Under the pieces are notes generated by a model. That model made no database searches. It saw nothing but the letters and a program-made list of their open reading frames with translations, and was not told the origin of the DNA. The position numbers were made by a program, and so were the translations under genes. Shown in pieces: positions 3,402 through 5,826 of a stretch of DNA of 64,000 nucleotides (positions within the stretch are counted from its first letter, which is position 1; the number at the start of each line of letters is the position of its first letter). The stretch lies in contig CM000433.1 in NCBI GenBank assembly GCA_000165345.1, forward strand, positions 832,001 to 896,000, written 5' to 3'.

Positions 3402-4424
3402 TTATTCTTGATTACCAACCAATGTTTGGGTCTCGCTATGATCATTTAGATAGACTTCAAATCCATCAAGTCTCTGTTTGATCGATAGTAATTCAATGAG
3501 ATTACTCCATTCTTGTCTAATATATGAAAGAATTCTGAGCATATTATTTACAACAGCTACAGAAGCAGTATATGTACCAAAATCTATGTCACCTTTTAAG
3601 TAAGAAGGAATGATGAAGAATACAACAAAGTATCTTCTGAAGAAAATAGTTGCAGTAGATGCTGAGTCAACAAACATCATATGCTTATACATTTGGAAAC
3701 TATTATTTCTGACTTCAATGAAAAGTTTTCTGATAGTTGTTAGATCTTCATCTCGTACACTGACTTCTTCTGAATAGATAAGTTTCTTTCTATATGACGC
3801 TTCAAGTACTTGGTTGTCGTACTCGATGCTTGGGAGCTTAATTCCTGAAATAACTAGTGGAACAAAGCATAATAAATCGAAACTTAGAGCTGCGAATAAC
3901 AAAGAGTGAGAGTGAGATCCAAAGAATGGTACATAAGACATCATTCTACCATAATTTACAACTAATCTGTAAAATGCTATAGTTTTGCATGACCAGTATA
4001 GCATCTCAATTGCTATAGTTTCCAAAATTACAGCAAACTTTTGACAATCTTCTTGAATTCTTTGAGAAGCACCTTCAATGGTCTTTAGATGTTCCCACTT
4101 TTTTAGATAATAATTATTTAGAGCTGTTCTCCATTTAAATGCAATAAAATTACCTAATATTGCTCTACAGGCATTGCTTAGTGAAACTCCTGCAATTTCA
4201 ATCCATATAAAGCCATAAATAAATTGGATGAAATCATCAACTGTAGCTTTGTATCCTCCAGGGGTTGGATTTAAAAGACTTTGCATACAATTTGCATAGT
4301 ACTCTACAAGATAACTTGAGTGAGTGTCAAAGAAGCACTCAAAAATAGCCAAGCTTAAGATCAGGACAGACCCTAAATATGCCCATATGGCATATTTTTT
4401 GTCGCCAAAAAATTGTAAAATCAT
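3402..4424 (-). CDS. SbmA/BacA-type peptide-uptake transporter transmembrane-domain protein, paralog 1 (about 340 aa, no nucleotide-binding domain)
   Basis: Contains W-R-T-A-L-N-N-Y-Y-L-K-K-W...E-G-A-S-Q-R-I-Q-E-D, I-E-Y-D-N-Q-V-L-E-A-S-Y-R-K-K-L-I-Y-S-E-E and L-I-E-L-L-S-I-K-Q-R-L-D-G-F-E. These match, almost motif for motif, E. coli SbmA (W-R-T-A-M-N-E-Y-Y...[47 protein letters not shown]), recalled from memory. Several hydrophobic transmembrane segments. Confidence 0.75.
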   Translation of the reverse strand: MILQFFGDKKYAIWAYLGSVLILSLAIFECFFDTHSSYLVEYYANCMQSLLNPTPGGYKATVDDFIQFIYGFIWIEIAGVSLSNACRAILGNFIAFKWRTALNNYYLKKWEHLKTIEGASQRIQEDCQKFAVILETIAIEMLYWSCKTIAFYRLVVNYGRMMSYVPFFGSHSHSLLFAALSFDLLCFVPLVISGIKLPSIEYDNQVLEASYRKKLIYSEEVSVRDEDLTTIRKLFIEVRNNSFQMYKHMMFVDSASTATIFFRRYFVVFFIIPSYLKGDIDFGTYTASVAVVNNMLRILSYIRQEWSNLIELLSIKQRLDGFEVYLNDHSETQTLVGNQE

Positions 4425-4809
4425 GTTTCTTCTTTAATATGATAAATTTCCAAGAATAACGATAGTGATTTTTGTTGTCTGTTATATAATATCATATTCT
4501 TTTTTTTTGGGTAGGTGGGAAAATTTTTTTTTAGATACATGCCGGGAAAATGTCAAACTTTCGTTTTTGTTACCACAAAAAATTAATATATTTAGTAGCG
4601 GTACTCCCGCCAAGCATCGCATTTGTGATGAAGAAATGCATTCTTAAAAACAAGAACACTATTTTATATTTACAATAAAAAGCAACAAGAGAGAAAAGAT
4701 TATTAACTTTAAAGTTTTAAGCCATTTATAACATTTTTTCCTGAAATTTTTACTTACATCAATATCGAATCTGGAGAATCTATAAATTAAAGCTTAACTA
4801 AACAAAAAC
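4425..4809. promoter_or_regulatory. Shared divergent promoter region between the two SbmA/BacA-like genes, with E2F-like motifs
   Basis: A 385-nt region lies between two divergent start codons. It contains GCCGGGAAAA (4541-4550) and TCCCGCCAAG (4606-4615), close to the Cryptosporidium E2F-like G-box consensus. Confidence 0.5.
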
Positions 4810-5826
4810 ATGATATCTCCATACTTATTTAATAAAAAGTATGCACTTAGGGCTTACCCCTTAATCATAGTATTATTAGCTATGATGTGGATTGAAACAG
4901 GACTTAATATCAAAATGACCAAAATTTTCGGAGATTTTAACCAAAGACTTTCTGATTGTGAATCAAAGAGCTCAGACTGCACAATGAATGAAATGTTTAA
5001 ATTTGCATTAAATAACTTTGCTTTAAACTTCTTAATTATTTCATTTTTAAGATGCTTAACAAGCTATCTTGTAAATGTCTTTATATTTTACTGGAGGCAA
5101 GCACTTACAGAATATTACTTAAAAAGCTGGAACTTAATTAGTAGTGTTGAGGGAGCATCTCAGAGGGTACAAGAAGATACAGCAAGATGGGCAAAACAAT
5201 TACGTCTTACCATTTTTGAAATTGTAAGTGCAGGAATGACATTTATTAAAATCATTCCAGAACTTATCGCAGTTTCATCAGCAATTCCTGAAATTTTTAT
5301 TCTCGGAAAGATTAAGAATGGAATTATTTACCCACCATTTATTATATTTGGAATTCAAGTAATAATTTTAGCATTTTCAAGTTATAAATTACCTTATCTT
5401 CACTTTGAAAACCAGAAACTTGAAGCCAAATATAGAAAGGTCCTTGCTTTGAATGAAGATTCAGAACATAACGTTGACTCAAAAGAGTTGGAATCAATTT
5501 ATGAGCACTTGACTAGGAATTACTACTCTACCTTCAAGTGCACCTTCTTCTTCCAATATTTGTATGTTTCTGCAAATGAAATTGCTTTCTTCGTTGGTAA
5601 TATTTTCTTATGGCCATCATTTTTCCATGGCTCTATGACTGTAAAAATCTATTATACAGTCCAAAAGTTTATGGGAGATATGTTATTTGTTTTCATGATC
5701 ATTCAGGAAAGATGGAGAGGATTCACTGAGTTGATGTCAGTCTATAGAAGATTGAGAACATTCGAGGATGAAATTAGCAAAGCTGCTAAGGAAGGTGTTC
5801 AACTTAAAGAGATTGATCTAGATTAA
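4810..5826 (+). CDS. SbmA/BacA-type peptide-uptake transporter transmembrane-domain protein, paralog 2 (338 aa)
   Basis: Contains [13 protein letters not shown]...[33 protein letters not shown] and [17 protein letters not shown], closely matching the SbmA signature stretches. It is paralogous to the gene at 3402-4424. Confidence 0.8.
   Translation: [338 protein letters not shown]

Follow-up and report, generated by a model that had tools for sequence, protein, structure and literature searches.

A genus-wide head-to-head pair of short-form SbmA/BacA-like genes of probable proteobacterial origin in Cryptosporidium

The window analysed here is a stretch of 64,000 nucleotides from chromosome 5 of Cryptosporidium parvum. 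Near its start lie two head-to-head (divergent) genes, cgd5_3580 and cgd5_3590, whose products, paralog 1 (p1) and paralog 2 (p2), are homologs of the bacterial transporters SbmA and BacA (SLiPTs). In this study, we show the family and fold of both proteins, their short architecture without the peripheral helices TM0, the conservation of their residues, their distribution and the age of the pair. We consider it probable that cgd5_3580 and cgd5_3590 are an ancient, genus-wide pair of short-form SLiPT genes of proteobacterial origin, encoding likely dimeric, proton-coupled importers. The original prediction, which had read the locus as a bacterial SbmA-type pair, is supported in this respect. 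The pair is arranged as follows.

3402-4424, minus strand: paralog 1 (p1), cgd5_3580, EAK88047.1; open reading frame (ORF) of 340 aa, short-form SbmA-like (SLiPT), with a complete six-glutamate ladder
4810-5826, plus strand: paralog 2 (p2), cgd5_3590, EAK88048.1; ORF of 338 aa, short-form SbmA-like, with a partly degenerate ladder
4425-4809, no strand: shared intergenic spacer, 385 nt, GC 0.26; presumed bidirectional promoter

Both genes have the coordinates originally assigned to them, and the 385-nt spacer lies where it had been placed. All peptide stretches quoted at that time are found in the translations, where each residue lines up with its counterpart in the conserved blocks of E. coli SbmA. 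The products are, as claimed, membrane proteins of ~340 aa, with six long helices predicted, and share 25% sequence identity with each other. The exact proteins are encoded on chromosome-scale contigs of ~1.09 Mb in several independent assemblies of C. parvum, C. hominis, C. tyzzeri and C. meleagridis.

Family, architecture and transport residues

Both proteins match the Pfam family SbmA_BacA (PF05992, gathering cutoff 24 bits), p1 with 207.8 bits (E = 3.7e-61, residues 8-326, profile positions 1-314/315) and p2 with 189.7 bits (E = 1.1e-55, full length), a similarity well outside the range of chance. ABC_membrane_2 (PF06472) gives no match in p1 and an overlapping secondary match of 40 bits, above the cutoff, in p2; as had been expected, SbmA_BacA and not ABC_membrane_2 is the best hidden Markov model (HMM) for each. 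Pfam detects an ATPase domain neither in p1 and p2 (no ABC_tran match) nor in eight neighbouring ORFs. By sequence, the closest solved structures are E. coli SbmA entries, and the phmmer match to the SbmA structure PDB 7p34 (E = 2.9e-48) spans SbmA residues 79-394.

Single-chain models of p1 and p2 were predicted by AlphaFold2 from a 57-sequence alignment and compared with the PDB by Foldseek. Each model has six long helices (pLDDT 88.3 and pTM 0.78 for p1, pLDDT 85.9 and pTM 0.76 for p2), and the six-helix core TM1-6 of the SLiPT fold appears to be present in both predicted structures. The top fold match is the SbmA entry 9g3g, with a TM-score of 0.81 (E = 1.6e-15) for p1 and of 0.83 (root-mean-square deviation 2.1 Å, E = 2.2e-14) for p2. 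Ranks 1-5 for each model are all cryo-EM entries of SbmA, with E from 1.6e-15 to 8e-13 and 26-31% identity. These are followed by Rv1819c at E ~5-9e-6 and then by assorted ABC exporters including human ABCD1/3/4 (E 6e-6 or worse, identity 10-15%, TM-score 0.43-0.61). The best matches by fold and among solved structures are E. coli SbmA and not ABCD proteins; a best match to ABCD proteins had been named beforehand as the result that would argue against a bacterial origin.

p1 and p2 are a short, TM0-less form of the family, made of the TM1-6 core only and devoid of an ATPase domain. Their alignment starts at SbmA residue 79, the first ~78 residues having no counterpart, and in the multiple alignment a block of ~90 columns, which holds the peripheral helices TM0a/TM0b, is missing from both. 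The bacterial-type MFxSFF start is kept and fused straight to TM1. From the start methionine to the EGASQR motif the spacing is 116 in p1 and 113 in p2, compared with 112 in bacterial short forms and ~184-190 in long forms. Eight helices per protomer, the number reached with TM0, are found neither in p1 and p2 nor in the bacterial short forms. The original prediction had the family right and missed this short form.

E. coli SbmA and Sinorhizobium meliloti BacA (PDB 7p34, 9g3d-g) belong, like p1 and p2, to a single Pfam family and have no ATPase domain. Identity to E. coli SbmA is 27-31% over the whole TM1-6 core, on which the predicted models superpose with the TM-scores of 0.81-0.83 given above. 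SbmA differs in having a two-helix TM0 and in being one homodimer-forming gene as against two diverged, paired copies in a eukaryote.

Proteobacterial short forms of 320-345 aa, labelled 'putative transporter' in NCBIfam NF009036 / PRK12369, occur in Alphaproteobacteria (Nisaea, Puniceispirillum, Rhodospirillales), Betaproteobacteria (Alysiella, Wielerella, Oxalobacteraceae and one Bordetella metagenome-assembled genome) and Gammaproteobacteria (Enterovibrio, Photobacterium, Endozoicomonadaceae). Representatives such as Alysiella crassa P0009, Wielerella bovis P0089 and the metagenomic P0138-P0140 have the TM0-less architecture, length and MFxSFF-type start of p1 and p2, from which they differ in sequence (~30-33% identity). 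In architecture they come closest to the pair, and the donor was likely of this type. Compared with every bacterial short form, residues are added ahead of the FxWR motif, one in p2 and four in p1. Against the SbmA equivalog model of NCBIfam (NF008306, cutoff 492) p1 and p2 score 213.6 and 176.1 bits, and against NF009036 / PRK12369 (cutoff 385) 183.8 and 184.3 bits at a coverage of 1-326/326, in each case below the cutoff. Judged by sequence, p1 and p2 are diverged SbmA homologs with the architecture of the short 'putative transporter' and not certified functional equivalents.

The proton relay of SbmA is a ladder of the glutamates E193, E203, E269, E276, E287 and E378; its gates are Y368, R280 and Y285 with D288, and R190, K281 and R385 are cavity residues, while YddA, an ABC-type relative, has no equivalents of E203 and E287 (PMC8442886, PMC13316013). 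We scored these positions in the ortholog alignment, the ladder of p1 in six species and that of p2 in eight. p1 carries 6/6 ladder glutamates in all six species. In p2, four of the six (E193, E276, E287, E378) are kept; the two losses are genus-wide across the eight species, E203 being replaced by R (Q in C. muris) and E269 by H. R190, R280, K281 and R385 are invariant across p1 and p2. E. coli YddA in the alignment lacks E203, E269 and E287, in agreement with the literature, and E287, the position separating SLiPTs from YddA, is retained in both paralogs. By these residues p1 resembles a competent proton-coupled SLiPT core, and p2 looks like a conserved, partly degenerate version of it.

Probable bacterial origin and age of the pair

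Outside Cryptosporidium, identity drops abruptly to ~30-34%, and all named relatives are Proteobacteria (Alpha/Beta/Gamma). No donor lineage stands out among 80 named alpha-, beta- and gammaproteobacterial genomes, which all lie at 29-34% identity. When 1.84 billion representatives were searched exhaustively with an HMM profile of p2, 522 proteins matched at E <= 1e-3, only 19 of them at E <= 1e-30; 20 matches were examined and six genomic contexts were read. Close relatives lie in dense prokaryotic gene neighbourhoods, and the GC-rich, divergent P0239 and P0257 are likewise prokaryotic. Among the matches listed or looked up, no eukaryote-tagged protein was found beyond Cryptosporidium. A 2025 survey, which covered Bacteria alone, found SbmA/BacA confined within them to Pseudomonadota (PMC12003926). 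The best reading of these sequence comparisons is a horizontal acquisition of p1 and p2 from a proteobacterium with a short-form gene, and the present state of the genes is best explained if they have since taken on a parasite-like base composition and a parasite-type promoter. In a separate observation from the search, the p2 profile matches seven separate stretches of P0232 (948 aa), which suggests a multi-repeat or fused SbmA-like protein.

A vertical origin, with p1 and p2 as inherited eukaryotic ABC membrane domains (ABCD/YddA-type) that lost their ATPase, has to be weighed, as SLiPTs and type IV ABC membrane domains have a common fold and p2 passes the ABC_membrane_2 cutoff with its overlapping secondary match of 40 bits. 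ABC-type BclA, Mycobacterium Rv1819c (PDB 6tqe) and E. coli YddA do have a membrane-domain fold homologous to that of p1 and p2; Rv1819c is the best non-SbmA structural match to the models (TM-score 0.72-0.74), and YddA shares the ladder positions E193, E276 and E378. These proteins differ in being ATP-driven by a fused ATPase and are 17-18% identical to p1 and p2. The eukaryotic peroxisomal and lysosomal ABCD1-4 have a distantly related membrane-domain fold and, unlike p1 and p2, carry ATPase domains and no glutamate ladder; since the host has nothing closer to p1 and p2 than these proteins, it lacks a true counterpart. Vertical descent is extremely improbable and effectively refuted by the Pfam, fold and ladder evidence. 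The SbmA_BacA score is five-fold higher and p1 has no ABC_membrane_2 match; fold E-values are better for SbmA by 8-9 orders, at identities of 27-31% versus 10-15% for ABCD proteins; E287 is kept in both paralogs and E203 and E269 in p1, all three being absent from YddA; and the close relatives are all proteobacterial.

Bacterial contamination or an assembly artefact has nothing in its favour beyond the bacterial family assignment, and we leave it practically no probability. It is refuted by the ~1.09-Mb contigs in the assemblies of several species and by orthologs in at least 12 species, whose trees mirror the species phylogeny, with the pair present in C. muris as well; GC is 0.32-0.33, compared with 0.29 in neighbouring genes. 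The earlier statement that the genes are no contamination is borne out by these independent assemblies and species. The accompanying statement of a fully Cryptosporidium-like composition holds for overall GC, which at 0.33 (p1) and 0.32 (p2) is near the local norm (0.286 +/- 0.035 in local genes), but not for GC at third codon positions (GC3). The GC3 values of p1 (0.265) and p2 (0.296) are the highest among 21 long ORFs of the window (mean 0.191 +/- 0.035); a weak trace of foreign origin or an effect of codon usage may lie behind this.

Orthologs of both paralogs are present in all Cryptosporidium species among the search matches, at least 12 in number: parvum, hominis, tyzzeri, meleagridis, chipmunk genotype I, ubiquitum, canis, felis, the bovis/ryanae/xiaoi group, muris, andersoni and serpentis. 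C. muris carries the identical head-to-head arrangement with a spacer of 537 nt, so that the suggested check on other species came out in favour of a genus-wide pair. Of the four genes next to the pair in C. muris, none has a match anywhere in the 64-kb window; the two paralogs thus stayed together while their surroundings changed. Trees were built by neighbour-joining on corrected distances, for 45 taxa and 325 columns with YddA as outgroup and for a 60-taxon set; long-branch attraction is a real risk here, and long branches make distance trees of these proteins unreliable. The p1 clade and the p2 clade are each recovered in 199-200/200 bootstraps, and the branching within each follows that of the species, C. 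muris being basal, which places both copies before the radiation of the genus. An entry into the lineage before the split of gastric and intestinal Cryptosporidium explains the pair best.

Two further observations concern copy number. C. serpentis has a third, p2-derived copy (KAL7066611.1, P0147; 335 aa; JBHPOL010000068.1, L087:10001-11008), which aligns without gaps to C. muris p2 at 36% identity, lies at a separate locus without an SbmA neighbour and has L in place of the ladder residue E378; no ortholog of it was found in other species. The C. hominis entry 'Chro.70165' may be an additional family member encoded at another place in that genome, or else an old gene-numbering quirk.

Whether one transfer or two gave rise to the pair is the less certain part of its history. 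A single transfer followed by duplication in situ is the most parsimonious account and, in our judgement, a fairly likely one. The original prediction of transfer and tandem duplication stands to this extent, although the neighbour-joining trees, which recover the paralog clades, settle neither the relation of p1 to p2 nor the bacterial sister. Two independent acquisitions, or the co-transfer of bacterial paralogs that had already diverged, are unlikely but deserve consideration. p1 and p2 are only 25% identical to each other and each ~30-33% identical to bacterial proteins; their monophyly has a bootstrap of 40% with amino-acid distances (45 taxa) and of 31-34% in the 60-taxon set; the top NCBIfam model is SbmA for p1 and the short 'putative transporter' for p2; and the loss of E203 (Q/R) together with a 'QEDTA' signature is common to p2 and the bacterial short forms P0138-P0140, which have Q at E203 as does C. 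muris p2. The low mutual identity is, however, to be expected if both parasite branches evolve fast, and support for monophyly rises to 75% with Dayhoff-6 recoding (45 taxa). In C. parvum as in C. muris the two genes sit side by side in divergent orientation. The bacterial loci examined have one copy each. Both proteins are short forms, and both have one extra residue between the start and FxWR compared with all bacterial short forms. Nineteen columns invariant in bacteria are changed in both clades, 5/19 to an identical new residue, among them a W->Y change at a position where 29/29 bacteria have W.

The claim of bacterial origin agrees with the named relatives, all of them proteobacterial, but has to be qualified on one point: a second eukaryotic lineage may have the family. 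Two short-form SbmA-like proteins, P0150 (L092/L093, from SRR13378176/7) and P0154 (L094/L095, from JGI 3300017358/3300017376), are each encoded by a single ORF on a contig of ~1.2-1.3 kb with untranslated ends and of equal length from two samples; the true start of P0154 lies upstream, giving 358 aa that begin with MFKPFF. They look like mRNAs rather than fragments of bacterial genomes, and it is not assertable that Cryptosporidium is the only eukaryote with the family. A loop between TM1 and TM2 that is longer by three residues is common to p1, P0150 and P0154, and the exact QEDCQKF signature of p1 recurs, uniquely among 351 proteins compared, in P0154; among the 80 nearest metagenomic relatives listed, which are ordinary bacterial short forms, neither was found. 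Upstream of the ATG, L092 and L093 contain CCGTAGCCA, and CTCAAG stands at the 5' end of L094; we take both to be partial pieces resembling the dinoflagellate spliced leader. L095 extends this 5' end as GTGTTGTCTCAAG, which is no clean spliced leader. A dinoflagellate origin of P0150 and P0154 is not claimed, since the matches are partial and L095 contradicts a clean leader.

The family could then be older in eukaryotes, by a deeper acquisition in alveolates with losses in apicomplexans, or could have been acquired independently by another protist. The transcript-like contigs, the loop and signature shared with p1, and the sister position of P0150 and P0154 to p1 in the best neighbour-joining tree point in this direction. 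We consider it very unlikely nonetheless: the sister position has bootstraps of 12% and 3%, P0154 is nearer to bacterial short forms (38-45% identity) than to p1 (24-27%), GTGTTGTCTCAAG in L095 is not a clean leader, and eukaryote-tagged matches beyond Cryptosporidium are absent, as stated, among those listed or looked up. Acquisition from a proteobacterium in the Cryptosporidium lineage remains the preferred reading.

Proposed transport and its alternatives

Dimerisation, proton coupling, direction, substrate and location we infer from the mechanism of SbmA/BacA. By this analogy the p1 and p2 proteins would dimerise, and protonation of the buried ladder glutamates would switch the dimer between outward- and inward-facing states. 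An inward proton gradient would then power the entry of peptides, or of other hydrophilic molecules that are bulky, into the cytosol of the parasite, either from the parasite exterior or from an acidic internal compartment. If the bacterial topology with both termini cytosolic is kept, a site at the plasma membrane or feeder organelle would lead to import from outside the parasite, and a site at an acidic organelle to export from lumen to cytosol. Apicomplexan surface membranes are energised by proton pumps.

Several points weigh against such a transporter. Y116 is not conserved in either paralog (M/I/N/Q). Y285 is replaced by L in p2 and C. muris p1, the residue that bacterial short forms also have there, and Y368 by I/V in p2 and by S in C. 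muris p1. TM0, a proposed stabilising scaffold, is absent. As both proteins score below the equivalog cutoffs, functional equivalence with E. coli SbmA is not to be assumed. The proposal presupposes a suitable proton gradient at the parasite membrane concerned, and the searchable literature holds no transport, localisation or knockout data for cgd5_3580 or cgd5_3590. We know of no bacterial short form for which there has been an experimental characterisation. Single Glu->Ala mutants of the E. coli SbmA ladder lose transport or are severely impaired (PMC8442886), so p2 may be inactive as a homodimer. Eikenella 'BclA-like', the sole non-canonical family member tested, complemented partly (PMC12003926).

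With family and origin as described, the cargo may be something other than an antimicrobial peptide: a vitamin or cofactor of the cobalamin type, a lipid-like molecule or an aminoglycoside. The pair may also serve export from an acidic organelle, or p2 may be a non-transporting regulatory or scaffold partner. This is a realistic possibility, if less than probable. Among the substrates carried by relatives in the superfamily are cobalamin (Rv1819c), long-chain fatty acids (ExsE), gentamicin and bleomycin (PMC12003926, PMC13316013); the substrate-linked Y116 is not conserved, p2 lacks two ladder glutamates and the Y368 gate, and the NCBIfam equivalog cutoffs are not reached. We found nothing against it; the ladder of p1 and the set of gate arginine and lysine residues argue solely for retained proton-coupled transport.

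A more specific proposal is that p1 and p2 work only as a heterodimer, in which one ladder is intact and the other degenerate, at the parasite surface or the feeder-organelle interface, as an uptake route for host or microbiota peptides and bulky cationic drugs. Among secondary transporters, this obligate heterodimer would correspond to the heterodimeric ABC exporters with one degenerate ATP site. The idea is attractive, since p2 is strictly conserved and always linked to p1 even though single ladder mutations cripple transport in E. coli, and the circumstantial evidence comprises the presence of both genes in every species sampled, an arrangement that survives rearrangement of its flanks and a complementary loss of residues. 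As a whole we nevertheless hold the proposal to be doubtful. If it were true, imported drugs could include aminoglycosides such as paromomycin. Paromomycin is described as reaching the parasite while bypassing the host cytoplasm (Griffiths 1998, cited in PMC2919388), and bacterial SbmA/BacA is linked to aminoglycoside uptake (PMC12003926; 2026 bioRxiv preprint).

Promoter, surroundings and significance

Two candidate regulatory elements lie in the spacer between the genes.

4605-4613, minus strand: putative E2F-like site TTGGCGGGA, with the GGCGGG core of C. parvum motif 4, TTTGGCGGGAAV
4541-4550, plus strand: weaker E2F-like element GCCGGGAAAA, one mismatch from GGCGGGAAA; could be chance

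The spacer had been described as an E2F-motif promoter. The site TTGGCGGGA is indeed present, as one of only 4 loci with the strict E2F-like pattern in the 64 kb, but the motif is not distinctive: E2F-like motifs, including motif 4 (TTTGGCGGGAAV), are the commonest upstream element of C. parvum, with ~2,379 genes (PMC3734150). Given this abundance genome-wide, the site says little on regulation. With the patterns used here, the C. muris spacer showed no E2F motif with GC core. In the part of the PMC3734150 supplement that was available, cgd5_3590 is listed in expression cluster 129 of an in-vitro developmental time course, beside housekeeping genes, and is thus transcribed; cgd5_3580 was not found among the cluster entries listed there.

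The pair sits amid lineage-specific genes in a rearranged region. The eight long ORFs that flank it (window 40-24727) are without a significant Pfam domain. At 10030-12115 the window has a plus-strand ORF of 661 aa (GC 0.38, GC3 0.12) with long Ser/Thr/Pro-rich tandem repeats and a strong negative GC skew; it enters a run of 100 N (12016-12115), an assembly gap that truncates this mucin-like repeat gene.

The family assignment of cgd5_3580 and cgd5_3590 is already public in database annotation. Records of C. hominis TU502 label the orthologs 'sbmA' and 'sensitivity to microcin B17', those of C. muris, C. meleagridis and C. tyzzeri 'SbmA/BacA-like family' and that of C. felis 'Peptide antibiotic transporter SbmA'; a vaccine study had an 'SbmA/BacA-like protein' among its antigens. 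In the searchable literature we found no paper that mentions cgd5_3580 or cgd5_3590, and no discussion of the two genes as horizontal transfers or transporters; a 2004 survey of horizontal gene transfer in C. parvum does not list them, and the supplements of a paper on feeder-organelle transporters make no mention of them. New in the present work are the short-form architecture, the unequal conservation of the glutamate ladder in the two copies, the age and linkage of the pair and the apparent lack of published follow-up.

Cryptosporidium is a major cause of childhood diarrhoea with poor drug options, and the entry of drugs and nutrients into the parasite is largely obscure. Since CRISPR tagging and knockout are established for C. 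parvum, as is complementation of E. coli ΔsbmA, questions about the putative transporters can be tested directly. In p1 and p2 the transporter field would have SLiPTs of a eukaryote, which represent the fold in a naturally minimal form without TM0. If they are bacterial-type importers of bulky cargo without a human counterpart, they would be a candidate gate for drug entry, and the pair would likewise be a candidate route by which the parasite may sense or consume peptides of the host or microbiota in the gut.

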